Origin: Promethearchaeota archaeon
GTDB taxonomy: Archaea > Asgardarchaeota > Lokiarchaeia > Sigyniarchaeales > SOKP01
Assembly (NCBI GenBank): GCA_004524535.1
Contig: SDNY01000071.1
Location: 1 to 18,562, forward strand
Direction: 5' to 3'
DNA: 18,562 nucleotides
The notes beneath the pieces were generated by a model that saw nothing but the letters and a program-made list of their open reading frames with translations, made no database searches and was not told where the DNA came from. The position numbers and the translations under genes are program-made. Below are positions 440 through 18,562 of the stretch, piece by piece (the first letter of the stretch is position 1; each line of letters begins with the position of its first letter).

Positions 440-518
440 TAATAATTTATCTACTGTATATTTAAATTTTATCTTAGGACCTTTTTAAAAATTATTAAAA
501 TTTAATTAATACGGGGAT

Positions 519-1830: not shown

Positions 1831-2217
1831 TTGATTAAGGTGGTCATAATTTATTCTGATAAAGTAATGGAACATTTTAAGAATCCCCGAAATATGGGTG
1901 AAATGGAGGATGCTGATGCTGTAGGGGAGGTAGGCAATCCTACTTGTGGAGATCTTATGTATATTTATATTAAAGTAAAAGAAGATAAAATAGAGGATAT
2001 TTCTTTTCAAACCTTCGGTTGTGGGGCTGCTATAGCTACTTCAAGTATGGTTACAGAGATGGCAAAAGGGAAAACATTAGATGAAGCATTAGAAATAACA
2101 AGAAAAGATGTGGCTGATGCCTTAGATGGACTTCCACCAATCAAAATGCACTGTAGCAATTTAGCTGCGGATGGATTGCATAAAGCGATAGAAAAGTATC
2201 GTGAAAAGCAAAAATAG
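1831..2217 (+). CDS. iscU: Fe-S cluster assembly scaffold IscU/NifU-N
   Basis: YSDKVMEHFKNPRN, GNPTCGD, FGCG, LPPIKMHCS (three conserved Cys plus LPPVK-like motif). Start uncertain: TTG 1831, GTG 1840 or ATT 1849. Confidence 0.95.
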   Translation: MIKVVIIYSDKVMEHFKNPRNMGEMEDADAVGEVGNPTCGDLMYIYIKVKEDKIEDISFQTFGCGAAIATSSMVTEMAKGKTLDEALEITRKDVADALDGLPPIKMHCSNLAADGLHKAIEKYREKQK

Positions 2218-2341
2218 TTGACTGATAATACGAGAAATATAATATTATTGAATCAACTATACAAATAACCTTAGAATTTGAGACCAATGCTTGTTATTTT
2301 AACTAATATTAATTATTCCATAAATCATACTTAATAATTAC

Positions 2342-2395
2342 GTTTATAATATCAACATTCTGAAGTAGATGTTTACAAATTATAAACAAAATCTA
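2342..2395. promoter_or_regulatory. Candidate operator (nested inverted repeats) upstream of copA
   Basis: GTTTATAAT (2342-2350) and ATTATAAAC (2379-2387) are an exact inverted pair. TAGATGTTTA-N7-TAAAC-AAA-ATCTA (2366-2395) is an imperfect palindrome. Confidence 0.3.
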
Positions 2396-2450
2396 TAATA
2401 AATCATTTTGATATCTTCCACTAGAAGTATTATAATCTTGGGTGATAATC

Positions 2451-5400
2451 GTGAAAGAACAAAAAAAAGAAAAGATTAAAATAAAACTTGGTGGAATGAC
2501 TTGTGCATCTTGTGCCCTTAAAATTGAAACTAAATTAAAGAATCTTGATGGTGTAAATAGTTCAGTAGTTAATTTTGCAAATGAAGAAGCTACAGTTGAG
2601 TATGACCCTAAAACGACTAATTATGAAACGTTTAATAAAGCAATAAATGATTTGGGGTATAAATCTTCGTTAGCAAAGATTGATATAAAAATTATTGATT
2701 CGCTTTCTGAGGATAATTTTAATAGTTCAGTGGAATTGATTAAGAAAATTGATGGTGTCTATGGTGTAAGAGGGAATTATAAATCAGGTAAAGTTTTTAT
2801 AGAATTTAGTGAATTAGAGATTGATGAGAATAAATTATATTCAAAAATAAAGCAATTAGGTTATAAAATTGAGAAATCTGCTAGTGTTATAGATAAAGAA
2901 ATTGAGGCTCATAGAAAAGAATTGAAATATAGACGGCATATTTTCATAATTTCTTTAATTTTTTCGCTGATAATAACACCTATTAGTTGGTTTGTAGTCG
3001 AATCGTTTGAAAGGAACTTTTTCCTTTTCTTTTTAGCTATAGCAAATTATTCCATATCGGGATCATTCTTTTTAAAAGGTGCTTACAAATCTCTTAAAAA
3101 TAAATCTGCGAACATGGATGTATTAGTTGCCTTAGGAACCACGACTGCGCTGATTTATTCAATATTAACAACTTTCTTTATATCAGGGAGAACATTTTAC
3201 GAGGCAATGAGTATGATTCTTACTTTTCTATTGATTGGAAAATACCTTGAACATAAAACTAAGGGGCAAACATCTGAAGCTATCAAAAAATTAATAGGGT
3301 TGCAACCGAAAACTGCGACTATCTTAAAAAATAGAAAGGAGATAGAGATACCCATTGAAGAAATTGAAATAGGTGATGTGTTGGTGGTAAGACCAGGTGA
3401 AAAAATACCTGTTGATGGAAAAGTAATTCAAGGGAAAACCAAAGTAGATGAGTCAATGATAACAGGTGAGAGCAAATATGTTAAAAAAGATGTTGATAGC
3501 GAAGTAATAGGGGCAACAGTGAACCAAACTGGTTTAATTCATATGCAAACTGAGAAAGTGGGAAAAGAAACATTATTATCTCAAATTATTGATTTTGTGA
3601 AGCAAGCTCAAGGTAGGAAAGCAGCTAAACAGCAATTAGCTGATAAAGTTAGTAATTATTTCGTGCCTCTTGTTATTATAATTGCTATTGGATCATTTTT
3701 ATATTGGTATTTTATAGGTTCTATTATATATCCCGAACTCCTAGGTTCAAGACTCGAAACATCCTTATTGGTATTTACCTCAGTCGTAGTTATTGCTTGT
3801 CCTTGCGCTTTGGGATTGGCTATACCGACGGCTGTAATGGTTGGAACGGGGAAGGGTGCCGAAAATGGGCTCCTAATAAAAGGGGGCGATTCTTTAGAAG
3901 CTATAAATAATATCAATACTATTGTATTTGATAAGACCGGTACATTAACTGTTGGAAAACCAAAAGTCTCTGTCATCTTTACTGAAAAAGATTTAAAAGG
4001 TCAAGGATATGACTCAAAGGAACTATTATATTATGCAGGAAGCGCTGAAATGGGATCAGAACATCCACTCAGTTTGGCTATTATTGAAGAAGCTAATCAA
4101 AGAGGACTCTCACTCAACACACCAACTGAATTTGATGCAATTCCAGGTAAAGGCATTTTAACTAAAATTGATGGCAAAATTCTCTTGATCGGAAATGATC
4201 GACTAATGTTAGAAAAAAACATTCCAATAAATGGTTACACGGAAAAATTTAAAGAGTTTCAGCAACAAGGAATAACCTCAATTTTAGTGAGTATTGATAA
4301 TGAAGTGAAAGGGATCATTGGTATTTCAGATAAAATCAAGGATCAAGCTCCATACGCTTTAGATCAATTACGAGGGATGGGGTTAAATATCTACATGTTA
4401 ACGGGGGATAATAAACAAACCGCACTAACTATAGGAAAAGAATTAAAAATTGATGAAAAACATATTTTAGCGGAAGTTTTGCCTAATGAAAAAGCACTTA
4501 CTATTAAAAAACTTCAAGATTCTAACGAAAATATAAATGTAGGAATGGTTGGTGATGGCATAAACGACGCACCAGCTTTAGCGCAAGCTGATGTAGGTAT
4601 AGCAGTAGGTTCTGGTACGGATGTTGCTATTGAAACAGCAGACATCGTATTAATGAGGGGAGATCTTAGAAATGTTGTTTCAGCTATCAAATTATCTAAG
4701 AAAACTTACAAAAAAATGATAACAAATTTGTTCTGGGCTTTTATATATAATTTAATTGGAATTCCACTTGCCGCAGGATTATTATTTGGCTTAACGGGAT
4801 ACTTCTTGCCTCCTTATCTTGCTGCAGTATTTATGGCAACAAGTTCTATTTCAGTGGTTACCAACGCATTATTCTTAAAAAGATATGAACCAAAAACTGA
4901 ACAACAACTCGAAGAAGAAAAGTTATTACTGGAAGAAAAAGTAATCGATCCTATATGTGGGATGGAAATTATCCCTAGCCAATCAATTGAGTATAAATAT
5001 AAAGGTGATAAATATTATTTCTGCAATTCATCATGCGAAATTGAATTTAAACGAGATCCTGAAAAATATAAAAATTTTGATAATATAAATCCCAAATTAA
5101 TGCAAAAAGGAATAAAAAAAGAGAAGCTTGTTACCGATCCCGTCTGTGGTATGAAAGGAAAGCCAGAGGAGTGGATTGATTACGAATATAATGGAAAAAA
5201 GTATTATTTTTGCAATCAATCATGTATAGTTGAATTTAAAAAAAATCCTGAGAACTATATTGAAAGTGAAAAAAATGAAGAAATAATTAATTCAAAAAAG
5301 GAGGTTGAAGAAAAAGTGGGAAAATTAAAGTGTGTAGAATGTGGTGCTGAACAAGACTTACCAATGCATTGTGGTAAACCAATGCATAAAGAAGGTAACC

Positions 5401-5483
5401 AATTGGTTTGCTGGATGGGTCCATCATGTGGAGCACAACCGATCCCAGAGCACCATGAAAAACCTATGGAAGTAATTGAATAA
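2451..5483 (+). CDS. copA: Cu(I)-translocating P1B-1 ATPase with N-terminal HMA, two C-terminal YHS domains and an extra Cys/His-rich terminal domain
   Basis: [39 protein letters not shown] and M..SS motifs; [14 protein letters not shown] and [14 protein letters not shown] (YHS). Likely start is GTG 2451 after SD GGTGAT (2441-2446); the track gives 2442. Confidence 0.95.
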
Positions 5484-5491
5484 TAAAAATA

Positions 5492-5500
5492 TTTTTTTTT
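5492..5500 (+). terminator. Oligo-T tract, likely archaeal intrinsic terminator for copA
   Basis: T9 run 8 nt after the copA stop codon, in a convergent intergenic region. Confidence 0.4.
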
Positions 5501-5596
5501 CAATTAAACGTATAATAATTTATTTTTTTACTTTTATTTTTTAAACTAAATAAGATTCAAAGTATTTTTTGATTCTATAATCGTTGCATTAAAAAT

Positions 5597-7855
5597 TCAA
5601 TTTAATATTAATAATTTCCTTTTTTGAGGTACACTAACTTTTTCTACACCCAATTCTTTTACGTAATCTGCTACATCAACTAATTTCTTTGAACTTTGGT
5701 GAAAAAAACAGACTTCCTTAGGCTCAAGATTTTTTATCATTTCTGTTAACTGTAGTTTATCTCCATGAAGTTTTATTTTCAACTGGGGAGCAAAGTTGTT
5801 TAACAATAAAGCTCTAAATGGCATTTTCCATGTTTCAGAAAACTCAATTTCTTCGGCACCTTCAATAAGATCTAACCCCGGTTGTTCATGAATTGCCCCG
5901 GATAGAAAAACTAAGTTATGAGGATTCCTTCCTATTATATTAATTATATTCCTAATTATTCCGTATGAAAGATCTGGTGGATGAGAAATTATTATATTAT
6001 TCTTTTTACGCAGAAAATCTAAATCTTTAAGATCAAACCATCTCATTTTAATACTATTAAATGGATTCGCTTTATCTCGTATTAATCTCGAAATAGGACC
6101 ATAAATATATTCATAACGATGATTTATAACTTGAATGTTTTTTCGGACCATTTGATCTACATAAATATTGGGCCTCTTTTGATATCCTTTTTTCAATTGG
6201 AGCTTTCTAAAATATCTCCAAAAAGTTAAAAGAAAAGAGATTGCTAAACTGGAAGGATCCGCTCCTATTAAAGAGCTATCACCATATTCGGCTTTCTGCT
6301 CCATGAATAGAATTAAACTATGAAATTGCTGAGATTGATCGCCTAAATCTTCATTTGCACAGACAGCATCAATAAGGAGAAAATCAATTGGACGAGAAAT
6401 TTGTTTCAAAAAGCTTCTTGTCCCAGCAAATGGAGTAATATCCCAGTATGTATAATCACCTGTATATAAAAATCGATAATTTTTGATTTTTGCTAACAGC
6501 ATTAAAGCTCCTGGCATATGTCCAGCGTGAAAAAACGAAAGATAACAATTTTTATTCTTAAATTCTATTTTTTCACCATTTTCAACGTAAATTACATTTT
6601 TTATTACATTTATATAACTTTCATCCTCAATAACATCATGATTTTCCTGTTTTAAGAACTCAGAATCTCGGAGGAGGTAAAGATCTAAAGTAATTCTTGA
6701 AGATAAAATTGGAACGTCCGGATATAATTTAATTAATTCCTTTAGCCCTGAAATATGATCGAAATGACTATGAGAGATGAAGATTGCGTCCAACTTTGGT
6801 CTGAAGGAAATATTATCTAATTCTTTTTCATTTTCTTCATTATTACTTATAATCTGATCTTCTTCGGCCTCGAGAATATACTGAGGTAAGTTTTCAAGAT
6901 AATCTTCAATAAATCTATAATAATGCTCAGTAATTCCGCAATCTAGTAGTATGTTAAATTTACCCAATCCTAGAATAATACAATTATGATTAGGTTTTAG
7001 CACTAAAGGGTAAAGTGTTATTCTAATTTTGTCAGAATCATTCTCACTAAGATTTATATCTTTAAAATAATCAGATGTATATCTCCTCTCAATTTTATCA
7101 ACGGCAATAGAAACATCACTATCACCAACAGGAACTCCTGTAATGTAAAAATACCAACCATAATGTTTGACAAGTTCATCAAGATTTTCATACATTTTAT
7201 CCCCAATTAAAGATTTAATGACAATTACTTTCTCATTAAAATAATAATTGATCGTTTTAATAGCAAATTTTTCTTTTTCAGGGATTTGCTTATTATGTAA
7301 AAAGAAATGGTTTAAAAGTTCATTAAACGGTTTTTGAGGGATTTTTTTTGAATTTATAAGCTTAAAATATTTAAAATATTCTTTAGTCTTATATAATCCT
7401 CGCATCTTCTCTTTTTGTTTAATTTTAATTTTATGTTCTTTAAATTCATATTCTTCTGTTTTCACGGTTATTTCTTCTTTTTTAATTTTCTTTTTCGTTC
7501 GTTTTGCTTTACTCATATCCTCCGTCTCGGAAACAAAGAAAAACCAACCATAAAGCCTAATAAATTTATCTCGATTCCAAATAAATTGCTTTCCATGTTT
7601 AGTTATAACAATAATTATACGATCTTTAGGGGAATATAAGATTTTTGAAACAGAATTTTTGGTTTTATTTGAGAGAGATGTATTTTTATTAAATAAATGA
7701 TCTAACACTTCATTAATTTCCTTTTGAGGAATTTTGCTTTTTTCCATAAAGTCTAATTTCTTCTTAAATGATTTAATTCTAAAAGAAGAACTTAATTCAC
7801 TTTTTTCTTCAATTAAAATGGATTTATTATTAAACTTAAATTCCTCCTTCTTCAT
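5597..7855 (-). CDS. Metallo-beta-lactamase/beta-CASP ribonuclease-like protein (CPSF73/aCPSF-like) with duplicated N-terminal domain
   Basis: LLDCG, SHSHFDH (HxHxDH), HAGHMPG, YTGDY, DFLLID, KLHGD and C-terminal FFHQ match MBL motifs 1-4 and beta-CASP motifs A-C. Confidence 0.8.
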   Translation of the reverse strand: MKKEEFKFNNKSILIEEKSELSSSFRIKSFKKKLDFMEKSKIPQKEINEVLDHLFNKNTSLSNKTKNSVSKILYSPKDRIIIVITKHGKQFIWNRDKFIRLYGWFFFVSETEDMSKAKRTKKKIKKEEITVKTEEYEFKEHKIKIKQKEKMRGLYKTKEYFKYFKLINSKKIPQKPFNELLNHFFLHNKQIPEKEKFAIKTINYYFNEKVIVIKSLIGDKMYENLDELVKHYGWYFYITGVPVGDSDVSIAVDKIERRYTSDYFKDINLSENDSDKIRITLYPLVLKPNHNCIILGLGKFNILLDCGITEHYYRFIEDYLENLPQYILEAEEDQIISNNEENEKELDNISFRPKLDAIFISHSHFDHISGLKELIKLYPDVPILSSRITLDLYLLRDSEFLKQENHDVIEDESYINVIKNVIYVENGEKIEFKNKNCYLSFFHAGHMPGALMLLAKIKNYRFLYTGDYTYWDITPFAGTRSFLKQISRPIDFLLIDAVCANEDLGDQSQQFHSLILFMEQKAEYGDSSLIGADPSSLAISFLLTFWRYFRKLQLKKGYQKRPNIYVDQMVRKNIQVINHRYEYIYGPISRLIRDKANPFNSIKMRWFDLKDLDFLRKKNNIIISHPPDLSYGIIRNIINIIGRNPHNLVFLSGAIHEQPGLDLIEGAEEIEFSETWKMPFRALLLNNFAPQLKIKLHGDKLQLTEMIKNLEPKEVCFFHQSSKKLVDVADYVKELGVEKVSVPQKRKLLILN

Positions 7856-7949
7856 TACTTAATACAAATTTCCGTAACAAAAAATTATTACGATTTTTCC
7901 AAAAATCAAGCTTTCAAATTCTAAAGAAAATTAAACTCGATTTATATGA

Positions 7950-8891
7950 TTAAGGCACTTTATTTAATTTATTCAAAAAAATTGCCGCATCTTTAAGGGT
8001 TAATGCTAATCCTTGCATTAAATTGACGTATTTTTGCGTAAAATAAATTTTCCCTTCAAATTTTGGATTATCTTTAATTTCATCAATATTAACTATAACA
8101 GATTTCAAGACACTAATGCCTAAAGAATCGATATAAACCGTATCACCATCTTTTGCGGAAGAATAGTTTACCTTAGAATAGATCCAAAATTGGTTTGTCG
8201 GTTGTTCTATTTTTATAGGTTTTTTAGCTTTTTTAGCTATTTTTTTCTTAGGACTTTCTAAATCGATAATTTTTGCGATTAGTTTTTCCAAATAACTATT
8301 CGCTTCAGTTAAATTAAGCTCAGAAGACATAAGTAAAACAAGATTTAAAGTGATTTCTTTAAGTTGAAGTTTTTTTGAATAGACTTTTTGGTTATTTTCT
8401 AACAACAATATTGTTTGTTTTATATTAATTGGTTGCTTTTTCTCAATTTGCTCTAGTTGGCTTGCTATAATTACAAAGATCTCATCTGGTAATGAAGAAT
8501 ACATTACTTTTCCTTCTAAATTAAATATTGCGCCCCCTAACATTTTTTTATCTATCAATGATGCTCTTAAAATCTCAGCAATATTTTTTATTAATTGGGA
8601 TAAAGTATAGGTTATTATCCCTTCTTTATCTTTAGATTCACTTTCATAGAATTCGATTTTAGTAATTTCAAAATCTGCTTTATGATATGCTCTTACGGTA
8701 AAATTTTTATCTATAAACGCTTGAAAGCTGTGTTCGCATACAAAATCAGAAGGAATCGAAATTGTTGTTATATTTTCACTATGTTTAGTCAGTTCCATGG
8801 GAACCTTCAAGAACTTCTCTTTTCCACATCTAGGGCAGATTAATCTTATTTTTCTGTAATTCTCCCTAAAAATCTCGTCTTCATTGAGCAT
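7950..8891 (-). CDS. Hypothetical protein: N-terminal Zn-ribbon (CxxC...CxH) plus Roadblock/longin/profilin-like middle domain
   Basis: ICPRCG...VCEHSFQAFIDKNF..R, followed by 'LGGAIFNLEGKVMYSSLP...IASQL' and beta-strands then a helix, typical of Roadblock-like folds. Fold is inferred. Confidence 0.65.
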   Translation of the reverse strand: MLNEDEIFRENYRKIRLICPRCGKEKFLKVPMELTKHSENITTISIPSDFVCEHSFQAFIDKNFTVRAYHKADFEITKIEFYESESKDKEGIITYTLSQLIKNIAEILRASLIDKKMLGGAIFNLEGKVMYSSLPDEIFVIIASQLEQIEKKQPINIKQTILLLENNQKVYSKKLQLKEITLNLVLLMSSELNLTEANSYLEKLIAKIIDLESPKKKIAKKAKKPIKIEQPTNQFWIYSKVNYSSAKDGDTVYIDSLGISVLKSVIVNIDEIKDNPKFEGKIYFTQKYVNLMQGLALTLKDAAIFLNKLNKVP

Positions 8892-9006
8892 TGGATCGTA
8901 ACAAACGAAGTAAAGTTCAAAATTCTTATTTAATAAAGGTAAAAAAGATTTATAAATTTTTAAAGTATCATGTTATAAGATATAATCTACATATTTAATT
9001 TACCAA

Positions 9007-9855
9007 TTACCATTCATCGTAATTAGGTTTGCGTTTCTCTAAAACAGAAAATACCCCTTCGAGGAGATCTTTTGTGTTTAGACATATAACTTGAGATCTA
9101 TTTTCTAATTTAATCGCAGATTCAAGTGATTGTGCATCAACATTCGCATTTAACGCATCTTTAGTGAATCGAACTCCCATTGGACTTTTACCTATAATTT
9201 GTTGGGCTAAAACAATGGCCTCCTCGAGCAATTTGTTATCTGCAACTACTCTTGAGACCAGCCCAATTTTATCTGCTTCTTGGGCATCCATAGCTCTCCC
9301 TGTATACATAAATTCTGCAGCCCTTGAAAATCCAATAAGACGAGGAAGCCAATATGAACTTCCCATATCTGCTCCAGACACTCCAATATTGATAAATGCA
9401 TTGCAGAATTTAGCGCTCTCTCCTGCTATTCTAATATCTGATGCAAGAGCAAAACCAAGACCTCCTCCATATGCCACACCATTCACAGCAGCGATTACGG
9501 GTTGAGGTATTTTTCTAAGAAGAATCATGACTTCAGACAATTTCTTCTGAGCAAGGATATTTCTTTTAATTTTATCTTTTGCCATCAGATATTCAGGATA
9601 TTCTTCAGGAATTTTTTTAGCTGGTTTAAGTATAATTTGACTTTCTTTCAAGTCCAATCCAGATGAAAATCCGCGACCTTCTCCAGTAAGAATTACAACA
9701 CGAATAGCAAGATTATTTTCGAGATTTTTTAGATAATCTATCATTTCATGTGTTAACTCGAAGTTTATCGCATTCAGACTCTCTGGTCTATTGAAAATAA
9801 GGATTGAAATACCATCTTCTCTTTCTTCTACCTTAATACTTTTATAATCCTTCAT
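9007..9855 (-). CDS. Enoyl-CoA hydratase/isomerase (crotonase) family protein
   Basis: NRPESLNA, FSSGLDL, PVIAAVNGVAYGGG, ASDIRIA, GADMG, LPRLIG, TGR..A.EA..IGLV, EKRKP. SD-like GGTG before the ATG. Confidence 0.93.
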   Translation of the reverse strand: MKDYKSIKVEEREDGISILIFNRPESLNAINFELTHEMIDYLKNLENNLAIRVVILTGEGRGFSSGLDLKESQIILKPAKKIPEEYPEYLMAKDKIKRNILAQKKLSEVMILLRKIPQPVIAAVNGVAYGGGLGFALASDIRIAGESAKFCNAFINIGVSGADMGSSYWLPRLIGFSRAAEFMYTGRAMDAQEADKIGLVSRVVADNKLLEEAIVLAQQIIGKSPMGVRFTKDALNANVDAQSLESAIKLENRSQVICLNTKDLLEGVFSVLEKRKPNYDEW

Positions 9856-9947
9856 TTACACCACTATCTAATTTAATGTTTATATTAAGAATAAAAAGGA
9901 TAGATTGATTTAAAACAATATTTTATATTTCTTTTCTCCTAATTCAA

Positions 9948-11183
9948 TTAATGATGGTGACCTGATTCTGAGCTCTCATCAAACATATACTTGACTCCTT
10001 TTTTTAGAGGAGACATTTTTCTAAGACGCTCAATTATAGGAGGTAATTTTTCAAGAAAATAATCAACCTCTTCTTCAGTTGTAAATCTACCAAATGAAAT
10101 CCTTAATGAGCCATGCGCCTCTTCTGGTCTTAATCCTATTGCTAACAAAACATGAGATGCCTCCAATGAGACTGAAGAACATGCTGAACCAGTACTGGCA
10201 GCTATACCTTCCATATCTAAACTAAGCAAAATGGATTCACCTTCAATATATTTAAATCCTAAATTAACATTATTGGGAAGTCGCTGTGTAGGATGACCAT
10301 GCAAATAACTATCTTCAATATTTTCAGTTACAGCTTTTATAATCTTATCGCGTAGTTTGATTTGTCTTTCCATTTCTTTTGTCATATCTTCTTTACAAAG
10401 TTCAATCGCTTTAGCATACCCTGCAATTAATGGTACAGCTTCAGTACTTGGTCTCATTTTTCTTTCATGTTCACCTCCATGCATTAGGGGCTCAATATAT
10501 TTTCCCCAACCTTCCCTTTTACCCTTATTTCTGATATAGAGCATCCCAATACCCTTAGGACCATAAAGTTTATGGGCACTTGAAGATAACATATCTATAT
10601 TCATTTCTTTCACGTCTATCGGAACTTTTCCAATAGCTTGAACGGCATCTGTATGAAAAATTACATCATGTTTTCTTGCGATTGCTCCAATCTCTTTAAT
10701 TGGTTCTATAGTACCAATTTCATTATTAGCGAACATTATAGTTATTAAAATTGTTTTGTCAGTTATGGCATTTTCCAATTCATTCAAATCAATTAATCCA
10801 TATTTGTCGACATGCAAAAAAGTTACTTTATAGCCAAATTTCTCCAATTCTTTACATGGATTTTCAACCGCATGATGTTCTATAGAGGAGGTAATTATAT
10901 GATTGCCCCGATCTTTACATTTAAAAGCTACACCTTTAATCGCAAGATTGTCAGCCTCGGTACCCGAAGAAGTGAAAAATATATCATCCTTATCGGCATT
11001 AATGAATGAGGCAATTGTTTCTCTCGACTCTTCCAATATTTGGTGTGCTCTCTTACCTACTGTATGTAAACTCGAGGCATTTCCATAAGTTTGTTTAAAA
11101 TGTTTTTGAATTACTTCAATAACTCTTGGATCCATTGGAGTTGTCGCATTATAATCCAAATAAACATATTTCGAATCAGTCAT
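9948..11183 (-). CDS. iscS: Cysteine desulfurase IscS/NifS (group I)
   Basis: YLDYNATTP, YGNASSLH, TSSGTEADN, NNEIG, HTDAVQ, SAHKLYGPKG (PLP Lys), STGSACSS (catalytic Cys), SLRISFGR. Likely start is ATG 11183; the track gives TTG 11192. Confidence 0.95.
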   Translation of the reverse strand: MTDSKYVYLDYNATTPMDPRVIEVIQKHFKQTYGNASSLHTVGKRAHQILEESRETIASFINADKDDIFFTSSGTEADNLAIKGVAFKCKDRGNHIITSSIEHHAVENPCKELEKFGYKVTFLHVDKYGLIDLNELENAITDKTILITIMFANNEIGTIEPIKEIGAIARKHDVIFHTDAVQAIGKVPIDVKEMNIDMLSSSAHKLYGPKGIGMLYIRNKGKREGWGKYIEPLMHGGEHERKMRPSTEAVPLIAGYAKAIELCKEDMTKEMERQIKLRDKIIKAVTENIEDSYLHGHPTQRLPNNVNLGFKYIEGESILLSLDMEGIAASTGSACSSVSLEASHVLLAIGLRPEEAHGSLRISFGRFTTEEEVDYFLEKLPPIIERLRKMSPLKKGVKYMFDESSESGHHH

Positions 11184-11334
11184 TTCATTCAAATCTTAGA
11201 TTTACCTTTGAATAGGATTTTAAATATTAAAATAATTATGAAATCTTCTAAGATATTATAAGTATAGTTTTTTTTAAAAAGATAATAATTATATTTAACA
11301 AATCTAAAAAAATATATTCGAACGAGATTTAAAA

Positions 11335-11892
11335 ATGGTCTTTTCTCTAATTTGGGGTATTACTGGAACTGGTTATCTTATTCAGGAATCTATTGATTTA
11401 ATGAAGGAGCTAAAAAACGAATTTAAGGATAAAATAAATATTACAGTTATGCTCTCAAAGGAAGGAGCTGTGGTTGTGAAGTGGTATAAACAATGGGATT
11501 ATTTAAATGAAGTTGTCAAGAAAGTAAAGGTCGAGAATACACCGAATAATCCATTTTTAGCAGGTCCACTTCAGCTTGGCAAATATGATTTATTTATTGT
11601 ATGTCCAGTCTCAGCGAATTCTGTTGCAAAAATAGTATATGGAATAGCTGATTCCTTAATTACGAACTGTGTTGCTCAAGCAATTAAGGGAGGGGTTATA
11701 GTTTATTTATATCCATCTGACCAACATTTGGAACCGATAGTTACTTCAAGACCCGATGGAAGTCCTTTAGTTTTAAAGATTAGAGATATTGAAATTGAAA
11801 ACGTCAATAAATTAAAAAAAATGGAAGGTATTGTAGTTCTTTCAGATTTTTCAGAAATAAAACCTATTATTCTACAGAAATTTGAAAAATGA
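11335..11892 (+). CDS. Archaeal flavoprotein (AfpA/dihydromethanopterin reductase-like, HFCD superfamily)
   Basis: WGITGTG, SKEG..VVKWY, GPLQLGKYD, PVSANSVAKIVYGIADSLITN..AQA.KG, YPSD are characteristic of AfpA/DmrX flavoproteins. Confidence 0.8.
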   Translation: MVFSLIWGITGTGYLIQESIDLMKELKNEFKDKINITVMLSKEGAVVVKWYKQWDYLNEVVKKVKVENTPNNPFLAGPLQLGKYDLFIVCPVSANSVAKIVYGIADSLITNCVAQAIKGGVIVYLYPSDQHLEPIVTSRPDGSPLVLKIRDIEIENVNKLKKMEGIVVLSDFSEIKPIILQKFEK

Positions 11893-12314
11893 TTGAGCAA
11901 GGAGCATTTATTACAGGAAATATTATTTTAGACACCATTACAATAATAATCGTTTCGATAATAATCTTCATAATAGGAATTTTTATTACAAAATGGATTG
12001 CTATAAGGGAAAATCGGGATGAATCCTACAAACCAGCTATTATACTAAATATCCTATGGTTGGGGGTAAATATAATATTCTATACTATTTTCAATTTCAT
12101 AGCTTACGGTATATTTCTTGCTTTCATAATTTCCTTCTTGATGAATATATTTATAGGTTCTTTTTTAGCTTCAAAACTCTACAAGCAAGAATATGTTGTA
12201 TCTCTAGTTTTCGTCATTAAAATTTTGGTATATTTATTGATAATTGGACTGATTGTTGGTTTTATAGTATTTATAATAATCTTATTAATAATTATTGGAT
12301 TAACCGTAGTTTAG
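11889..12314 (+). CDS. Hypothetical integral membrane protein (~4 TM helices)
   Basis: 141 aa, four long hydrophobic stretches. ATGA overlap with the upstream flavoprotein stop suggests translational coupling. Confidence 0.75.
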   Translation: MIEQGAFITGNIILDTITIIIVSIIIFIIGIFITKWIAIRENRDESYKPAIILNILWLGVNIIFYTIFNFIAYGIFLAFIISFLMNIFIGSFLASKLYKQEYVVSLVFVIKILVYLLIIGLIVGFIVFIIILLIIIGLTVV

Positions 12315-12348
12315 AGCTAAAAAGAAGATAAATTATTGAATATTAAAT

Positions 12349-12789
12349 CTAACCTTCAAATTTTATTACTTTAATTGCTTTCTCGGGGCAGGATAATTCA
12401 CACTTAAAGCAACCTTGACATTTAGCAATTTCCTTAAACTTAAATTTAATTACATCAATTTCCTTATCATTAACTCGTATTTTGTCCTTGTAGAATAGAT
12501 TATTTGGACATAATTTAACTTCTCTGTCTACACATTTCAAACATAAATTGCATCTTTCATGTTCAATTTTAACTGTAAGTACTTGTTGTTGACTTACTAC
12601 CGAAGTTATTACGATAGCATTTCTTGGACACACTTGTACGCAGGTTAAACATGCCTTACACTTAGAATAATCAACCTGTCTAATTCCATGTTTGAAATAT
12701 ATTGCTTTTTCTGTACAAGCTCTTACACATCTTTCGCATTTTATACACTGATTTTGATCAATCTGAATGGGGAAAAATTTTTCTTTCAT
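12349..12789 (-). CDS. Polyferredoxin with four [4Fe-4S] motifs
   Basis: CIKCERCVRAC, CKACLTCVQVCP, CNLCLKC-x7-CP, CQGCFKCELSCP. Confidence 0.9.
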   Translation of the reverse strand: MKEKFFPIQIDQNQCIKCERCVRACTEKAIYFKHGIRQVDYSKCKACLTCVQVCPRNAIVITSVVSQQQVLTVKIEHERCNLCLKCVDREVKLCPNNLFYKDKIRVNDKEIDVIKFKFKEIAKCQGCFKCELSCPEKAIKVIKFEG

Positions 12790-12861
12790 GCTTATTCAAA
12801 TTAAGAAAAAAAGAGCTAATAAAATTGATTTTTATAAAATAAAGTTCATTTTTTGAAGATA

Positions 12862-13653
12862 TTATTGAAAATATTGCGTATATTCTTTACCTGTTCCAGG
12901 CAATTGTTGTTGTTTCTGATATTCTTGTGCTTTTTGTGCCAGTTCCAACATCTTAGCTTTGATTTCTTTACCTTCCTCGATTAATTTATCAGTTTCTATA
13001 TTTAAATTATAAATATCGTTTAAAACTTCAATAATTGCTGCGGCACCCTCAGGAGTAGGAATCTCTAATACGGGCGTAAATAATGCGTAAGCCCTTAATC
13101 TATTTGTCAAAGCTTCGTTTAGGACAGTTGCTTCAGGACCTACAATAATTCCTTTTTCAACTTTTTTAATACCATGCTTTTCAAGAGCATCTATCATCTC
13201 GGCTTCAGCAGCATAATAAACAGGATAATCGTCTATTATTCCCCTTTGTGGTATTCCTTGAAAAATAACTATTTCTTTTGCCCTCACATCTTCAGAAAGT
13301 GCCCAATTACATATTGTTTTTGAAAGGTCGTTGTAAGCAGAAGGGGTTTGAAAGGGAACTTCACAAACACCAACAATTAAGTTATGCTGAGGGGTATAGA
13401 GTAATCTAAACGGATGTTTCAAAACACCTTGATAAAATACGCTTATTGGTGGAAGATAATCAGAAACTAAAAATCCGATTTCCTTGACATCCGGAATCTG
13501 TTCTATGAGCTGATTTGCCACGATGGGACCTATTAGGCCGATACCCGCAAATCCTAATATTAGAGTTGCACCTTCATTAATTTGAAACGATAAATCTTCA
13601 ATAACTATTTTACTTTTTTTACCAGCGTCACAAATATATTCTTTTTTTACCAT
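12862..13653 (-). CDS. PAC2 family proteasome assembly chaperone (PbaA/PbaB-like)
   Basis: LGFAGIGLIGPI, LPP....G...HPFRLL, I.GP...L, PTPEGAA, IETDKLIEEGKEI. Likely start is ATG 13653 after AAGTGAT; the track gives GTG 13665. Confidence 0.85.
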   Translation of the reverse strand: MVKKEYICDAGKKSKIVIEDLSFQINEGATLILGFAGIGLIGPIVANQLIEQIPDVKEIGFLVSDYLPPISVFYQGVLKHPFRLLYTPQHNLIVGVCEVPFQTPSAYNDLSKTICNWALSEDVRAKEIVIFQGIPQRGIIDDYPVYYAAEAEMIDALEKHGIKKVEKGIIVGPEATVLNEALTNRLRAYALFTPVLEIPTPEGAAAIIEVLNDIYNLNIETDKLIEEGKEIKAKMLELAQKAQEYQKQQQLPGTGKEYTQYFQ

Positions 13654-13855
13654 TTTATAAATCACTTCTATTGTGTATATTTTAAAGTATTTATATTTTT
13701 ATCATGTATTAAATCTTAAAAACTTTCAATGGTTTTATAATAAATATTAATTTTCTTAACACAATAATTATATCTAATTGAATTTAAAAATTGAATGTAT
13801 AATTTATAGATACAAATAGAATTTTAAAATCTTGACACTAAAAGAGGGAAGAAAA

Positions 13856-14374
13856 ATGGTAGTAAATGAATTGAAGGTTGGAGATAAAGCTCCATCATTC
13901 AAATTAGACTCATATAATGCAGGAACTGTTGACTTGGCAGAGGAAATAGGAAAACAAAAAATTGTCTTAATTTTTTCAAGATATTTTGGTTGTCCTATTT
14001 GCCAATTAGATTTAAACGATTTATTGGCTAGGTTAACTGAAATTGAAAATAAAGGTGTTAAATTGCTATATATAACTCAATCCGGAGAAAAAACAGCAAA
14101 AGAATTCATAGAAAAGAAAAAGATCACTTTTCCAGTTATCCCTAGCTCAAAAAAAGAACTATATAAAGATTACGGGTTGGGAATGATGACTCCAGACGCT
14201 ATAAAAGAAGTAAGAACTAAATTCAAAGAGACCATGAAAGCGGGGATCGAACACGGTGAATATGAAGGCTGGGAACAACAAGGACCAGGACAGTTTGTTG
14301 TTGATTCGGATGGTACAATAATTCACGCAAAACAAGGATGGTTAAATATTGAAGCTATACTTGAAGTCTTATAG
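13856..14374 (+). CDS. Peroxiredoxin-like AhpC/TSA (redoxin) family protein, CxxC type
   Basis: LKVGDKAPSF, FSRYFGCPICQ, FP....KELYKDYGL, QGPGQFVVDSDG.I. Likely start is ATG 13856 after GAGGGA; the track gives TTG 13832. Confidence 0.85.
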   Translation: MVVNELKVGDKAPSFKLDSYNAGTVDLAEEIGKQKIVLIFSRYFGCPICQLDLNDLLARLTEIENKGVKLLYITQSGEKTAKEFIEKKKITFPVIPSSKKELYKDYGLGMMTPDAIKEVRTKFKETMKAGIEHGEYEGWEQQGPGQFVVDSDGTIIHAKQGWLNIEAILEVL

Positions 14375-14410
14375 AAATTAAATCCGGAAATAGATTATTA
14401 ATTTATTATA

Positions 14411-14420
14411 TTTTTTTTTT
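14411..14420 (+). terminator. Oligo-T tract, likely terminator after the peroxiredoxin-like gene
   Basis: T10 run about 36 nt downstream of the stop codon. Confidence 0.35.
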
Positions 14421-14538
14421 AAGAAAATTTATAAAATAAAACAATAAATTCAAATCGGTTTATTAACTAATAACAATACAGTTAAAAAGATTAATATTCA
14501 TTAACACTAAATTTTTATTATTTTGAGATATTGTCATT

Positions 14539-15108
14539 ATGGAAATGAAGAAAAAAACATTTAACGAGTTATTAAATATTGATAACGATGATAAAAAGAT
14601 CATCGAAATGATTGAAAAAAATCCTGATATTACTCATTCTGACATCGCAAAAGAAATTGATAAAAGCCAACCAGCTGTAGGCGCCCGAATTATAAAATTA
14701 GAGAGAAAAAATTTAATTACTAAACAAGTTGGATTTAATATTAGAAAGGTCGATATTGTATCGTCAATTGTATTCATCTCTACGAAAGATGTCGAAAACA
14801 TTGTAGAAAAAATTAAGGATTGTCCTTTTATTAATCACGCTTTTAAAATTAGTGGGGAATACAACCTATTATGTATTATATCTGCTTCAGATTTGCAAAC
14901 TATTGAGAGACTCATTGATTTATGCTTTCGTAAAGATCCGAATGTTATTAATGTTAAAACAAATATTTTAATCGATTCTATACATGATTTTGTTGTCCCT
15001 ATTGACTTTCAAATTGAAAATTTTGATGGCAGATATTGCGGACCAGGATGTCATTTAAAAGAAGAGATACCCAAATTTAAGTTTCAACAGATCGAGAAAG
15101 AAGAATAA
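14539..15108 (+). CDS. Lrp/AsnC family transcriptional regulator (paralog 1, Cys-rich)
   Basis: IDNDDKKII..NPDITHSDIAKEIDKSQPAVGARIIKLE (HTH); SGEYNL RAM-domain motif; CPF; C-terminal CGPGC. Confidence 0.9.
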   Translation: MEMKKKTFNELLNIDNDDKKIIEMIEKNPDITHSDIAKEIDKSQPAVGARIIKLERKNLITKQVGFNIRKVDIVSSIVFISTKDVENIVEKIKDCPFINHAFKISGEYNLLCIISASDLQTIERLIDLCFRKDPNVINVKTNILIDSIHDFVVPIDFQIENFDGRYCGPGCHLKEEIPKFKFQQIEKEE

Positions 15109-15122
15109 GTAAATTTTTTTTC

Positions 15123-15662
15123 TCAAATCTTACCTTCTTTTTTGGCGATGAGATATTTACATTTCTCCCCGCAGCCTTCTTCTATTGTTGGTTCGTGATC
15201 TTCAGAATCAAAATCGATAGGAAGAATAAAATCTTTTGCAATCTCTGTCACAACATTCATTGAAACCTTACTCACATCTGGATTCCCCCGGAAATGATAA
15301 TTCACAACATTCTCTAATTTTCTGAGTTCTGAACTCGCCAAAAGAACACAGATATTATATTCACCACTTACACGGAACGCGTTGAGCATAAAAGGACAAA
15401 CCTTCGCCATGCTGAGAATCTCCTCTGGATCGTTAGTATTTACTTCGACAGTCGCCATAAAAATCTCTACCTTTTTGAAATTAATACCAGGTTGAAATTG
15501 TAATACGCCTGATTTTTCTAGCTTTTTTATGCGCATTCCAACTGTAGGTTGACTTCTGTCAATCCTTTCGGCAATTTCAGTATGAGTAAGATTTGGTTCT
15601 TCTTGAACTAGTGTTATTATTTTACGGTCAATATCGTCCAATTTTAATTTTTCTGAAATCAT
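15123..15662 (-). CDS. Lrp/AsnC family transcriptional regulator (paralog 2, Cys-rich)
   Basis: LDDIDRKII..PNLTHTEIAERIDRSQPTVGMRIKKLE (HTH); SGEYNI; CPF; C-terminal CGEKC. Confidence 0.9.
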   Translation of the reverse strand: MISEKLKLDDIDRKIITLVQEEPNLTHTEIAERIDRSQPTVGMRIKKLEKSGVLQFQPGINFKKVEIFMATVEVNTNDPEEILSMAKVCPFMLNAFRVSGEYNICVLLASSELRKLENVVNYHFRGNPDVSKVSMNVVTEIAKDFILPIDFDSEDHEPTIEEGCGEKCKYLIAKKEGKI

Positions 15663-15780
15663 TTTTTTTCAAATTTTAATTTATATCTATTATATAAGAA
15701 ATTGATTTTTACAATTTATAATTTATAAATTAAAAATTAGATTGTTAAATGAAATTTTTAACCGCTAAGAAGAAATAATT

Positions 15781-16026
15781 TTAATCTATTGTTATTGCTC
15801 CAAATTTACAGTTTGTCGTACACATATGGCATTTTATGCACCGATCTTCACGATCTTCAATAACAATGCATTTAGGTTCTGAATCTTTATTGATAACGTG
15901 ATAAATCCCCCTAAAGCAAGCTTCTTCGCAATCATAAGTCGTACATTGTCGACATTTATTAGTGTCGATATGGTGAAATCGATAACTCTCTACAGTCTCC
16001 GTATTATTTGCTTTATTCATATGCAT
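15781..16026 (-). CDS. Small 2x[4Fe-4S] ferredoxin
   Basis: CRQCTTYDCEEAC (CxxCx4Cx3C variant) and CIKCHMCTTNC..GAI. Start is at 16026 or 16020. Confidence 0.85.
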   Translation of the reverse strand: MHMNKANNTETVESYRFHHIDTNKCRQCTTYDCEEACFRGIYHVINKDSEPKCIVIEDREDRCIKCHMCTTNCKFGAITID

Positions 16027-16136
16027 TCTGAAATAAGAAAGCCTTTTATCTCTTTATATTATATTCCATAAAGCAATTTTTTAATATTGACTAATAATTT
16101 ATCAAATAGACCCAATTTTAAAGAAGAGAATTATTA

Positions 16137-16804
16137 ATGGAACAAATAAATAAACCTGTTTATGAAATACATAATTTAAAGAAAGGCATATTTTTATCCC
16201 GACCAAACCGTTTTATTGCTGAAATTAAATATGGTGGACGGATGGAAAGTGCTCATGTCCACGATCCTGGTCGCTTGAAGAATTACTAATTAAGGGGGCT
16301 GAAGTGCTTTTTACTAATTCAAATGGTAAATTGAAATACTACATAAAAGCCGTTAAATATAACAACGAATGGGTTTTAATTGATAGTGCACAACATTCGA
16401 AAATCGCCATGAAAATTTTTTCTTATCTACCTGAATTCTCAAATGTAAGAGAGATAAATAAGGAAATTACGATAGGAAAAAGCAGAATTGATTTTCTACT
16501 AGATGGAACACCTTTAGAGGTCAAAGGATGTACATTAGTGAGAAATGGTCTTGCCTTATTTCCAGATGCTCCAACAGAACGGGGAACACGTCATGTAGAA
16601 GAAATAATTAAACATAAAGGAATAATATTATTCTTGATATTCCGAAAAGCGGACAGCTTTGCTCCTAATTGGGAAACAGATCCTAAATTCTCTAAAAAAT
16701 TAAGTGAGGCAAGGAAAAAAAAGATCAATATTATCTGTGTAGAAATTAGTTTTGATGGAAAAATGCTGTATTATAATGGAAAAATAAAATTGTCCGAATT
16801 TTAA
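16137..16804 (+). pseudogene. sfsA: DNA/RNA nuclease SfsA, interrupted by a 1-nt deletion near 16278-16280 (pseudogene or sequencing error)
   Basis: ORF 16137-16289 encodes MEQINK...FLSRPNRFIAEI...AHVHDPGRLK then NY*. The -1 frame continues ELLIKGAEVLF...SRIDFLL...EVKGCTL...FPDAPTERGTRH...DPKF. One extra base restores a 222-aa SfsA. Confidence 0.85.
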
Positions 16805-18238
16805 TCATTTATCCTCAACATTAATGCCTAATTCTTTTAATTTATCCCGGATATTATCACTTAGGTCATATATTTTTCGGGTTCTCAACTCGGCTCTAAC
16901 ATCATAAATGATTTTCAATAAATTCTGAATAGTAGCTCCCTTTTCATCAAGTGATACCTCATCCCCTAGTGCTAATTGGCTTTTTAGATTCGGAAATAAA
17001 CCAAATATCTTATTCATATTATCTACAAAATTAAAGAATTTATCCTTGAAATCTTTATTAATAGGTAGTTTATTTTCCAATACTTCTCTGTTTATAACTC
17101 TAAATAATCTTAAGAATTCAGCGAGAGCGATGGGAGTATTAAAATCATCATCCATAGCTTTGATAATTGATTTTTCTGCCTTTTCGATTTCTAAAATCAA
17201 CTCTTTAATATTTTTAGAAGAAATATCTTGTATAGTTAGCTCATGGATATTTCTAATAGTACTTAAAAGCCTATTGTAGTTTTTTTGAGCTTGATTCATA
17301 TTGTCTAACGAGTAATTGATAGAACTTCGATAATGGCTTGAAAAAAGAAATAGTCTTATTACCATTGGGTCGTAATTTTTTATAACCTCCGAAACTAAAA
17401 AGAAATTTCCGAGACTTTTTGACATTTTTTCATCATCTATATTAACAAAGCCATTGTGCATAAAATAATTTGCAAATTTCTTACCTGTATATCCTTCTGA
17501 TTGAGCTATTTCGTTTCGATGATGTGGAAATTTTAAATCTTGACCCCCTCCATGGATATCAAGAGTTTCACCTAAAATATTAACTGACATGGAGGAACAC
17601 TCAATATGCCATCCAGGGCGACCTTTACCCCAGGGACTTTCCCAATAAGGTTCTCCTTCTTTGTGTTTTTTCCATAACGCAAAGTCTCGGTGATCTTCTT
17701 TATCATCTCCATAGGCAATATCTTGATCTTCAATATCCTCATTGTCATCGTGTAGCTCTCCTGCTTTTACATTCTGAAATATCGAATCATATTTTGGAAA
17801 AGTTTTAACAGAATAATATACAGAACCATTTCTTTCATACGCATGCTCATTTTTAATTAATCCTTGAATTACTTCAATCATAAAATCGATGGTTTCCGTA
17901 GCTCGTGGATTCATATAATCCTTTTCGACGTTTAAAGCATTCATGATATCCTCGTATTCTTTTATATATTGCTCGCTTAATGTATTAAAATCTATGTTCC
18001 TTTCATTTGCTCTTTTTATTATTTTATCATCAATATCAGTATAATTCTTTACTAATTTTACATTATAGCCTTTAAACTTTAAATAACGATGGACAAGATC
18101 AAAAGCAACGGCAGATTTAGCATGCCCCAAATGAGGACTATCATACACCGTGGGACCACAGACATACATTAGAACTTCATTTGGTTTGATTGTTTTGAAT
18201 TCCTCTTTCTGGAATGTCAAGCTATTATAAACCATCAA
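16805..18238 (-). CDS. cysS: Cysteine--tRNA ligase
   Basis: YVCGPTVY, HLGH (HIGH), NYTDIDDKII, DFALWK, WGKGRPGWHIECS, DIHGGG.DL.FPHH.NE.AQS, KMSKSLGN, MDDDFNT, SDNIRD.L. SD GGTGAT at 18253-18248. Confidence 0.97.
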   Translation of the reverse strand: MMVYNSLTFQKEEFKTIKPNEVLMYVCGPTVYDSPHLGHAKSAVAFDLVHRYLKFKGYNVKLVKNYTDIDDKIIKRANERNIDFNTLSEQYIKEYEDIMNALNVEKDYMNPRATETIDFMIEVIQGLIKNEHAYERNGSVYYSVKTFPKYDSIFQNVKAGELHDDNEDIEDQDIAYGDDKEDHRDFALWKKHKEGEPYWESPWGKGRPGWHIECSSMSVNILGETLDIHGGGQDLKFPHHRNEIAQSEGYTGKKFANYFMHNGFVNIDDEKMSKSLGNFFLVSEVIKNYDPMVIRLFLFSSHYRSSINYSLDNMNQAQKNYNRLLSTIRNIHELTIQDISSKNIKELILEIEKAEKSIIKAMDDDFNTPIALAEFLRLFRVINREVLENKLPINKDFKDKFFNFVDNMNKIFGLFPNLKSQLALGDEVSLDEKGATIQNLLKIIYDVRAELRTRKIYDLSDNIRDKLKELGINVEDK

Positions 18239-18290
18239 AATATTGAGATCACCAAAAAATCAAGTTTAAACATCTTAATTATTAATAAAA

Positions 18291-18402
18291 TGGAGCCAGC
18301 GGTGGGATTTGCACCCACGCTGCTTGCGCAACGGCTCTGCAGGCCGCCTCCTTACTACTCGGTTGCGTAAACTTATATTAACTATAAGTTTTATACGCTG
18401 GC
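18291..18402 (-). tRNA. tRNA-Cys(GCA), intron-containing, CCA encoded; predicted mature length 82 nt
   Basis: Spliced sequence: GCCAGCG TA TCCG AGTAGTA AGGA G GCGGC CTGCAGA GCCGT TGCGCAAGCAGC GTGGG TGCAAAT CCCAC CGCTGGC T CCA. It has a 7-bp acceptor stem, anticodon GCA, G37 and U73 (Cys identity elements). Exons are 18402-18393 and 18362-18291. Confidence 0.9.
18363..18392 (-). other. 30-nt tRNA intron at position 10/11 with relaxed bulge-helix-bulge motif
   Basis: Minus strand: GCGT-AT^A-AAACTTATA-GTTAA-TATAAGTTT-ACGC-AA^C. This gives a 4-bp central helix (GCGT/ACGC), two 3-nt bulges and a perfect 9-bp intron hairpin. Cutting after the 2nd bulge base restores the D stem (U10-A25, C11-G24, C12-G23). 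Confidence 0.8.
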
Positions 18403-18408
18403 GCTGGC
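18396..18408 (-). repeat. Tandem duplication GCCAGC-GCCAGCG: the tRNA leader repeats the acceptor-stem 5' strand
   Basis: GCCAGCG occurs at 18408-18402 and again at 18402-18396, in otherwise very AT-rich flanking DNA. Confidence 0.85.
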
Positions 18409-18562
18409 AATATTTATATTTCGTTAATTTTGTGTTCTTCTTTATCATATCAAAAATCCTTTATCACTTATATATTTAGTTCTAGTAAATGCTTAGAATA
18501 TTACAAACTAATTTAATATATTATTATATGAAAGCGTATGAAGCTAATATTTTAAAAAAAAA

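Follow-up and report, generated by a model that had tools for sequence, protein, structure and literature searches.

We analysed a window of 18,562 nucleotides (contig SDNY01000071.1 of assembly GCA_004524535.1, positions 1 to 18,562), from a Promethearchaeota archaeon of the order Sigyniarchaeales, and focused on a tRNA-Cys gene (GCA anticodon, U73) on its minus strand. The gene occupies positions 18402-18291, consists of two exons separated by a 30-nt intron, and lies upstream of cysS, which encodes cysteinyl-tRNA synthetase (CysRS). It carries an extra arm, a small hairpin in the variable region, and an altered elbow with A18 and G55. Sequence comparison indicates that the arm is a heritable, structurally constrained allele of the cysS-linked tRNA-Cys, apparently a lineage-specific insertion in Loki-type archaea. 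The A18/G55 combination appears, by the same kind of comparison, to be an old and widespread alternative archaeal elbow that is specific to tRNA-Cys. We consider it probable that this is a single working tRNA-Cys gene, whose arm is kept in the mature tRNA and which is charged by CysRS.

The extra arm and the elbow of tRNA-Cys

The tRNA-Cys genes of the order were gathered with a covariance model, and 129 genes from 124 genomes were tabulated by script. Three model matches that were other tRNAs (L194, L195, and L200) were dropped from the table. Each genome is counted through its best-scoring gene, to which second genes were added where these were looked for. With 14 further genes, the comparison covers 143 genes. 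Variable regions of 12-14 nt are present in 54 of them, in 18 different arm sequences, and these hairpin alleles are confined to genes with G55 (54 of 99, against none of the 44 with U55). Hairpin genes make up 3 of 9 in genus g1, 23 of 39 in g2, 23 of 36 in g11, and 1 of 4 in g6. Family f4 contributes 4 of 6, with all four of its genomes represented, and the other genera of family f1, as well as families f2 and f3, have none.

The stem of the arm shows covariation. In an alignment of 28 distinct 3' halves, all four pairs of the stem are formed in 100% of cells. Two of the pairs have changed on both sides (CG in 25, TA in 2, and GC in 1 for one; TA in 16 and CG in 8 for the other), while the other two show wobble changes. 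None of 500 shuffles reached the observed covariation, and sliding the partner columns lowers pairing to 37-72%. These results bear out the arm noted in a preliminary description of this DNA and show it to be under structural selection.

Hairpin and class-I alleles occupy the same place upstream of cysS and are otherwise nearly identical. Because the hairpin allele shares its locus with class-I alleles, the arm does not derive from a tRNA-Leu or tRNA-Ser, and the Leu/Ser scaffold suggested in the preliminary description had to be abandoned. Copying of the arm from tRNA-Ser as a general rule was also considered and rejected, since the tRNA-Ser arms are alike in three genomes (G114, G077, and G133) while their tRNA-Cys arms differ. 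When the hairpin label was placed on a CysRS tree of 33 genomes, it required 3 changes, compared with 8.1 for shuffled labels, and none of 500 shuffles was as low. This tree represents the window's genome by G008, whose CysRS is 96% identical, and is limited to loci flanked by a CysRS match of more than 380 residues. G008 has the identical tRNA gene, and whole clades have kept hairpin alleles. Among 513 columns of the CysRS alignment, none tells the 9 rows of hairpin genomes apart from the 23 of class-I genomes (G025 omitted), which fits an arm that CysRS ignores.

The arm was also present in metagenome contigs from three other studies. Population variants at window positions 18320, 18326, and 18327 have GTAA instead of GCAA in the loop, ATC instead of AGC in the 3' tail, or two inserted bases that make the stem longer. 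The metagenome variants are confined to the arm and preserve the hairpin. From these sequences, the arm appears to evolve quickly yet to stay a hairpin.

Among the other tRNAs of the genome, tRNA-Ser(TGA) and tRNA-Ser(CGA) (G000:C98:2505-2587 and G000:C140:14859-14961) have very short variable arms of 15 nt. The short tRNA-Ser arm consists of a 4-bp GCGC stem and a GNRA loop and has been conserved in three further genomes of this family; the SerRS of this clade must work with a minimal arm.

Positions 18 and 55 change together. In the 129 tabulated genes, AG at 18-19 with G55 was found in 97, GG with U55 in 20, CG with U55 in 11, AG with U55 in one, and GG with G55 in none. The 14 further genes obey the same rule (2 with AG and G55, 12 with GG and U55). 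Over all 143 genes, A18 accompanies G55 in 99 of 99 cases and U55 in 1 of 44, so that the earlier proposal of covariation rather than decay at these positions stands. The U55 forms are scattered over separate genera (g3, g8, part of g11, g21, and f3), each with a change at position 18. The single G of the D loop was numbered G19 by alignment with GG forms of equal length.

A18/G55, remarked on in the preliminary description, is not peculiar to this gene. A pattern scan that looked for a T arm with G55 after a Cys anticodon loop, run on one genome per species, returned at least 119 stretches, with 80 loci among the matches listed. The matches listed span Caldarchaeum, Micrarchaeota, Nanohaloarchaea, Woese-, Pace-, and Aenigmatarchaeota, Iainarchaeum, Bathyarchaeia, and Thorarchaeota. 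The covariance model matched 61 of the 80 listed loci, and 60 of these 61 read AG at 18-19, the exception being a 24-bit match in a bacterial record. Among the matches listed, 32 non-Loki genomes have a G55 tRNA-Cys; CysRS was found in 29 of them (E<=1e-30; 26 over the cut-off) and SepRS in none. On the latter count, the idea that A18/G55 marks genomes in which SepRS coexists was rejected. Thirteen other tRNA or tRNA-like genes read from the window's genome all have TTC at 54-56, and no differences were listed at the T-loop places in four metagenome runs.

Gene structure, detection, and the intron

The features of the locus are collected in Table 1. Exon 2 starts with C11-C12-G13, the D loop, AGGA, and G26, and continues with the anticodon arm, in which the 5-bp stem GCGGC/GCCGT encloses the 7-nt loop CTGCAGA (GCA at 18340-18338, G37 at 18337). 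The T stem is GTGGG/CCCAC, and the acceptor 3' strand CGCTGGC precedes T73 at 18294. T73 is also present in every tRNA-Cys row compared, both in the order and in other lineages. Every stem is paired, with 7 bp in the acceptor, three pairs plus G.A in the D stem, 5 bp in the anticodon stem (one of them G.U), and 5 bp in the T stem.

Table 1. Features of the tRNA-Cys locus (window coordinates)
Feature	Position	Strand	Details
tRNA-Cys exon 1	18393..18402	-	acceptor 5' strand GCCAGCG (positions 1-7), then T8, A9, T10; pairs with 18301-18295
Intron of probable bulge-helix-bulge type, 30 nt, between positions 10 and 11	18363..18392	-	missing from intron-less orthologues
tRNA-Cys exon 2 (positions 11-73)	18294..18362	-	D arm, anticodon arm, variable hairpin, T arm, acceptor 3' strand, T73
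D loop AGTAGTA	18353..18359	-	A18 at 18356, G19 at 18355; replaces G18 G19
Variable region TGCGCAAGCAGC, 12 nt (T-GC-GCAA-GC-A-GC)	18319..18330	-	3-bp stem (T:A, G:C, C:G), GNRA tetraloop, 2 unpaired bases
T loop TGCAAAT	18307..18313	-	G55 at 18312
Encoded CCA after T73	18291..18293	-	not conserved in relatives
Second copy of acceptor 5' strand GCCAGCG, in 5' leader	18402..18408	-	one-base overlap with G1
cysS (cysteinyl-tRNA synthetase)	16808..18238	-	TIGR00435 497.8 bits (cut-off 340); 484-aa open frame

The preliminary description of exon 2 (D loop, anticodon loop, variable hairpin, T loop, and T73) was correct base for base, and its statement that all stems pair with GCA, G37, and U73 intact agrees with our reading. 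Its reference to an intact CCA holds for the encoded letters; the 3' trailers differ among relatives, so the CCA carries no weight. The D arm, described there as class-II-like, proved to be of no such significance, because class-I alleles have the same stem of three pairs plus a purine.purine apposition.

With 12 nt, the variable region is longer than the 4-5-nt loop of class I tRNAs, and orthologous 5-nt alleles exist. In length it falls into class II (more than 10 nt with a stem-loop), and covariation backs the stem. By descent and identity the gene lies outside the class II tRNAs for Leu, Ser, and Sec, as it has T73, GCA, and a 7/5 fold and is orthologous to class-I tRNA-Cys. The elbow departs from the canonical form (A18 G19 and T54 G55 C56), with G19 and C56 retained.

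Standard tRNA finders fail on the genomic DNA because the intron sits at the unusual 10/11 site. ARAGORN reported no tRNA gene in the genomic window, and Rfam RF00005 scored 27.1 bits (18294-18372), below its gathering cut-off of 29 bits, with the 3' end of the intron mis-read as the acceptor strand. ARAGORN run on the exons joined in silico, a check proposed beforehand, returned tRNA-Cys(gca) of 82 nt with the extra arm. A covariance model of the relatives' tRNA-Cys (R1, built from nine intron-less relatives) matched the locus over 18294-18402 with 60.4 bits (E 2.2e-10).

The exon junction is fixed by comparison, since two observations agree. In seven intron-less orthologues (L009, L010, L011, L012, L014, L015, and L021) the exon-1 10-mer runs directly into CCGAG, and the BLAST matches of relatives start exactly at 18362 (query position 54). 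As the intron-less orthologues read across the proposed junction, the two-exon reading is not due to chance. The fold of 18356-18402 (-11.9 kcal/mol, z -3.64) has a 5-bp helix between positions 5-9 and the 3' end of the intron, a 3-nt bulge, and an 8-bp inner hairpin. Bulge-helix-bulge splicing follows a 2|1 cut rule. In a neighboring, hand-placed register with a 4-bp helix (positions 5-8), both junctions lie two bases into 3-nt bulges, and this modeled register would correspond to the classic bulge-helix-bulge geometry. The genome has two splicing-endonuclease (EndA) genes, with 107.9 and 70.7 bits, on contigs C100 and C84. This fits the heteromeric type of endonuclease, which, according to the accessible text of PMC5829648, can cut non-canonical introns.

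The intron resembles archaeal bulge-helix-bulge introns at non-canonical sites in lying outside 37/38, in its exon-intron helix and, in the modeled register, its 3-nt bulges, and in the two endonuclease genes of its host. It differs from that class in that the 10/11 intron is here always found with a tandem acceptor 5' strand in the leader: a copy of the 7-nt strand lies 6-12 nt upstream of the true one in 11 of 11 genes with a 10/11 intron (carriers include L003, L004, L006, L007, L020, L022, L256, L257, and L259), and in the other 114 genes that were scanned it is missing. Five further genes have two acceptor-strand matches that are not leader copies, internal at +17 in four g21 genes and distant at -90 in G032. 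The leader copy might hold the acceptor 3' strand while positions 5-8 pair with the intron. We know of no description of an acceptor-strand copy accompanying such introns.

The tRNA-Cys of the order is an intron hot spot, with insertions in the D, variable, and T loops, in the early part of the anticodon loop, and at 10/11 and 37/38. Two inserts per gene are common (for example in L232, L236, L013, L016, L260, and L263). About 65-80 nt upstream of G1 lies an A+T-rich motif, …AACTAAATATATAAGT (window 18466-18485, minus strand), which recurs by eye upstream of the gene in relatives L001, L003, L005-L007, L012, L019, L020, L022, and L023, and is likely a promoter box.

Charging routes and competing readings

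The host genome comprises 3.66 Mb in 198 contigs, with 30% G+C and 99.11% completeness. A model search gave 7 matches at E<=10, of which only the window locus is Cys, the others being Ser, Thr, and other tRNAs. A canonical tRNA-Cys elsewhere, named beforehand as a possibility to be checked, was found neither by the covariance model nor by a scan for a GCA stem-loop with a T arm. SepRS and SepCysS are both absent, with best matches of 69.8 bits (cut-off 380) and 31.4 bits (cut-off 365), respectively.

The cysS gene starts 53 nt downstream of the tRNA gene on the same strand. Of 47 relatives' loci with enough flank, 34 have this order, across most genera of the family, and the 13 loci without cysS adjacency belong mainly to genus g11 and family f4; one locus had too little flank. 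Such adjacency of a tRNA to its own synthetase points to transcription or inheritance of the two as a unit. The linkage is not a general archaeal feature, as only about 3 of the 32 non-Loki genomes among the matches listed have cysS on the same contig, at about 1-4 kb.

According to the mechanism that we favor as probable, the gene would be transcribed with its 5' leader and the probable bulge-helix-bulge intron, the archaeal splicing endonuclease would remove the intron, and end processing would follow. The mature tRNA would retain the stem-loop of 3 bp and GNRA as well as the elbow with A18 opposite G55, and the class I CysRS encoded directly downstream would charge it with cysteine through the GCA anticodon and U73. 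The arm would be a small expansion, kept compact through selection on folding, and we propose that it is free to exist because CysRS alone must bind this tRNA-Cys.

Over the order, SepRS was found in 53 of 150 genomes (48 over the cut-off), and its presence is associated with the allele of the cysS-linked gene in the family. The class-I/G55 allele occurs with SepRS in 32 cases and without it in 3, the hairpin/G55 allele with SepRS in 3 and without it in 47, and the class-I/U55 allele with SepRS in 4 and without it in 12; both cases of a U55 allele with a variable-loop intron lack SepRS. In G127, counted among the three SepRS-positive hairpin genomes, SepRS is no more than a fragment that contains a stop. 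In addition, a second, canonical tRNA-Cys (G18G19, U55, G10:C25, 4-5-nt variable loop, acceptor GCCAGAG, T8 C9, and a TTC T loop) was seen, where looked for rather than by a systematic search of all genomes, in 17 genomes, 15 of them SepRS-positive. Its carriers are G009, G010, G012, G018, G021, G063, G072, G074, G080, G099, G111, G112, G116, G143, and others (loci L201, L261, L286, and L296-L307), and it may be a species dedicated to SepRS. Six hairpin genomes other than G127 have SepRS or fragments of it. Four of these (G026, G028, G032, and G116) have the second tRNA-Cys, and the remaining two, G006 and G030, are 72% and 78% complete; incompleteness of metagenome-assembled genomes can hide SepRS or a second tRNA. 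With few exceptions, genomes that carry the arm have either lost the SepRS pathway or provide it with a second tRNA-Cys of its own.

Class II enzymes face the variable region of the tRNA. In the accessible text of PMC2330236, SepRS is described as coming to tRNA-Cys by way of the major groove and CysRS by way of the minor groove, and the G10:C25 pair matters, as a minor element, to SepRS alone. Together with this geometry, the association suggests that the arm is tolerated or useful only where SepRS need not charge tRNA-Cys. A more far-reaching possibility, which we regard as tentative and rather doubtful, is that Loki-type tRNA-Cys is split into two non-crossing channels, with the arm and the elbow swap as specificity devices rather than neutral drift. 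One channel would use the cysS-linked tRNA with A18/G55 and U10:A25, in many lineages with an arm that sterically excludes the class II SepRS; the other would use the canonical tRNA-Cys with G18G19/U55 and G10:C25, serving SepRS/SepCysS. The window's genome would then be an end state after loss of the SepRS channel.

The structure of the gene, its being the only one of its kind in the genome, its orthology, both covariations, and the set of enzymes are direct observations; splicing, expression, and retention of the arm are read from DNA, and charging by CysRS only and the reason for the SepRS link are likewise inferred. Several points weigh against a retained arm and a gene charged by CysRS. 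The minimum-energy fold of the intron region has a single bulge, and the bulge-helix-bulge register was derived by hand. The SepRS association comes from related, non-independent genomes, with concordant contrasts in just three genera (g1, g2, and g11). The hairpin occurs with SepRS in G006 and G116, and all four f4 genomes have SepRS or fragments, while SepRS-less lineages that keep a class-I loop include family f2 and genomes G139, G070, and G046. Finally, two relatives (G151 and G068) have true introns of 29-30 nt in the variable loop, so that removal of the hairpin is conceivable, and the short tRNA-Ser arm of the genome resembles the Cys arm, which makes cross-recognition by SerRS less absurd here than elsewhere.

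The hairpin could accordingly be a very small intron or processed insert, removed to leave a class-I tRNA-Cys. Its patchy distribution within genera is intron-like, and the tRNA-Cys of the order carry introns at many sites, in G151 and G068 in the variable loop itself. However, the inserts add only 7-9 nt to a 5-nt loop, whereas true introns in these genes measure about 15-45 nt. The stem of the inserts is flush and 3-4 bp long, closes a loop of 3-4 nt, and lacks 3-nt bulges around a 4-bp helix. Any bulge-helix-loop cut register would also take out C48. The stem stays paired through 18 versions, and population variants keep the GNRA loop or lengthen the stem, which fits a persisting structure. 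We therefore consider removal of the hairpin improbable. Less probable still, and to our mind a distant prospect, is that the arm confers a second identity, with serylation by SerRS leading to Cys-to-Ser ambiguity or to entry into the encoded PSTK/SepSecS route. The arm T-GC-GCAA-GC-AGC does resemble the T-GCGC-GCAA-GCGC-TC of the genome's tRNA-Ser, which has just one or two pairs more; the genome also encodes SepSecS (484.8 bits) and, with 144.4 bits against a cut-off of 290.5, a PSTK-like gene, and it lacks SepRS and SepCysS. Yet serylation is unlikely because the discriminator is T73 here, whereas both tRNA-Ser genes have G73, and the anticodon is that of Cys; in Bacteria and Eukarya, the serine determinants are G73 and a large variable region (PMC9976931, accessible text). 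The 7/5 acceptor/T stack and the short D stem are unlike tRNA-Sec, the gene adjoins an intact cysS, and the GCGC-NNNN-GCGC arm of tRNA-Ser (GTGT/ACAC in one copy) is retained in G114, G077, and G133, where the Cys arm is different.

A decaying or unexpressed copy, with the odd elbow and the arm as damage, is very unlikely, the least probable of these explanations, and excluded for practical purposes. The failure of standard finders and the replacement of U55 would be in keeping with decay, but the former is explained by the 10/11 intron, and this is the sole tRNA-Cys of a nearly complete, CysRS-encoding genome. Moreover, all helices pair, the gene recurs unchanged in G008, the hairpin is kept by whole clades, and elbow and arm both covary in ways that preserve structure. 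A functional tRNA-Cys that keeps its arm and is charged by CysRS thus remains the probable reading.

Further observations concern the genome as a whole. The selenocysteine machinery comprises SepSecS and the PSTK-like gene, which is full-length (G000:C188:20404-21705 and G000:C148:7941-8696). ARAGORN reported just 22 tRNA genes in the whole genome, some with implausible kilobase introns, and Rfam gave 15 above the cut-off. Most tRNA genes of the genome are probably hidden by non-canonical introns, and routine annotation would therefore under-count them. The near-identical sister genome G008 has a further G55-type tRNA-Cys (L295, G008:C22:33015-33087) with a G+C-richer body on a 280-kb contig, the counterpart of which was not found by model search in the window's genome; it could be a real second gene or come from a mis-binned contig.

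Relation to known tRNAs and meaning

The gene shares with canonical archaeal tRNA-Cys the GCA anticodon, U73, G15, G37, the 7/5 stack, the G15-C48 pair, and a cognate CysRS. It differs in its 12-nt hairpin in place of 4-5 nt, in A18/G55, in U10:A25 instead of G10:C25, and in the split at 10/11. The identity sets of archaeal tRNA-Cys used for this comparison of CysRS and SepRS are those in the accessible parts of PMC9976931 and PMC2330236.

Bacterial selC* tRNA-Cys are alike in combining cysteine identity (U73, and GCA in some selC*) with a long variable arm. As far as described in the accessible text of PMC7609411 (after Mukai et al. 2017), selC* tRNAs occur in anaerobic bacteria, are tRNA-Sec-like with an 8/4 fold, a long arm, and a long anticodon stem, and in many cases come with a CysRS* or SelB* of their own. 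The window gene, in contrast, is a housekeeping gene with an ordinary body of 7-bp acceptor and 5-bp T stem, outside the 8/4 type, and with a minimal hairpin. The nematode nev-tRNAs (PMC3333845, accessible text) likewise have a class-II-like arm on an anticodon for neither Leu nor Ser. They are additional copies and, according to the available portion of PMC4300185, are mischarged with leucine in vitro, whereas the window gene is the sole tRNA-Cys and keeps the Cys discriminator. In Methanosarcina mazei, the accessible text of PMC9976931 reports that SepRS and CysRS differ in the tRNA-Cys isoacceptors that they favor. The similarity lies in two Cys-tRNA routes with tRNA-Cys species that differ in the core, given the G10:C25 gene found in SepRS-positive relatives (15 of 17). 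Here the situation is known from genes, the tRNA-Cys species differ in the elbow pair as well and, in some lineages, by the arm, and the window's genome has lost the SepRS branch altogether.

The literature within reach, with supplements and subscription journals outside it, held nothing on an extra arm or G55 in archaeal tRNA-Cys, and the accessible text of PMC7609411, PMC5424206, PMC9499178, PMC8762117, PMC13433404, and PMC9976931 likewise mentions neither.

The G18-U55 pair is among the most conserved contacts in tRNA. To our knowledge, the tRNAs for Leu, Ser, and Sec are regarded as the only archaeal tRNAs with long variable arms. A housekeeping tRNA-Cys departs here from both rules in an orderly way. 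Because standard tRNA finders miss the gene, such genomes would be annotated as lacking tRNA-Cys. The clean covariation of the elbow over many archaeal phyla provides a natural isosteric test case for the architecture of the T loop and D loop and for enzymes that require U55. In turn, the link between the arm and loss of SepRS, together with the second canonical tRNA-Cys, leads to the testable idea that tRNAs may be shared or partitioned between two routes to Cys-tRNA, a question that is set in the closest archaeal relatives of eukaryotes.

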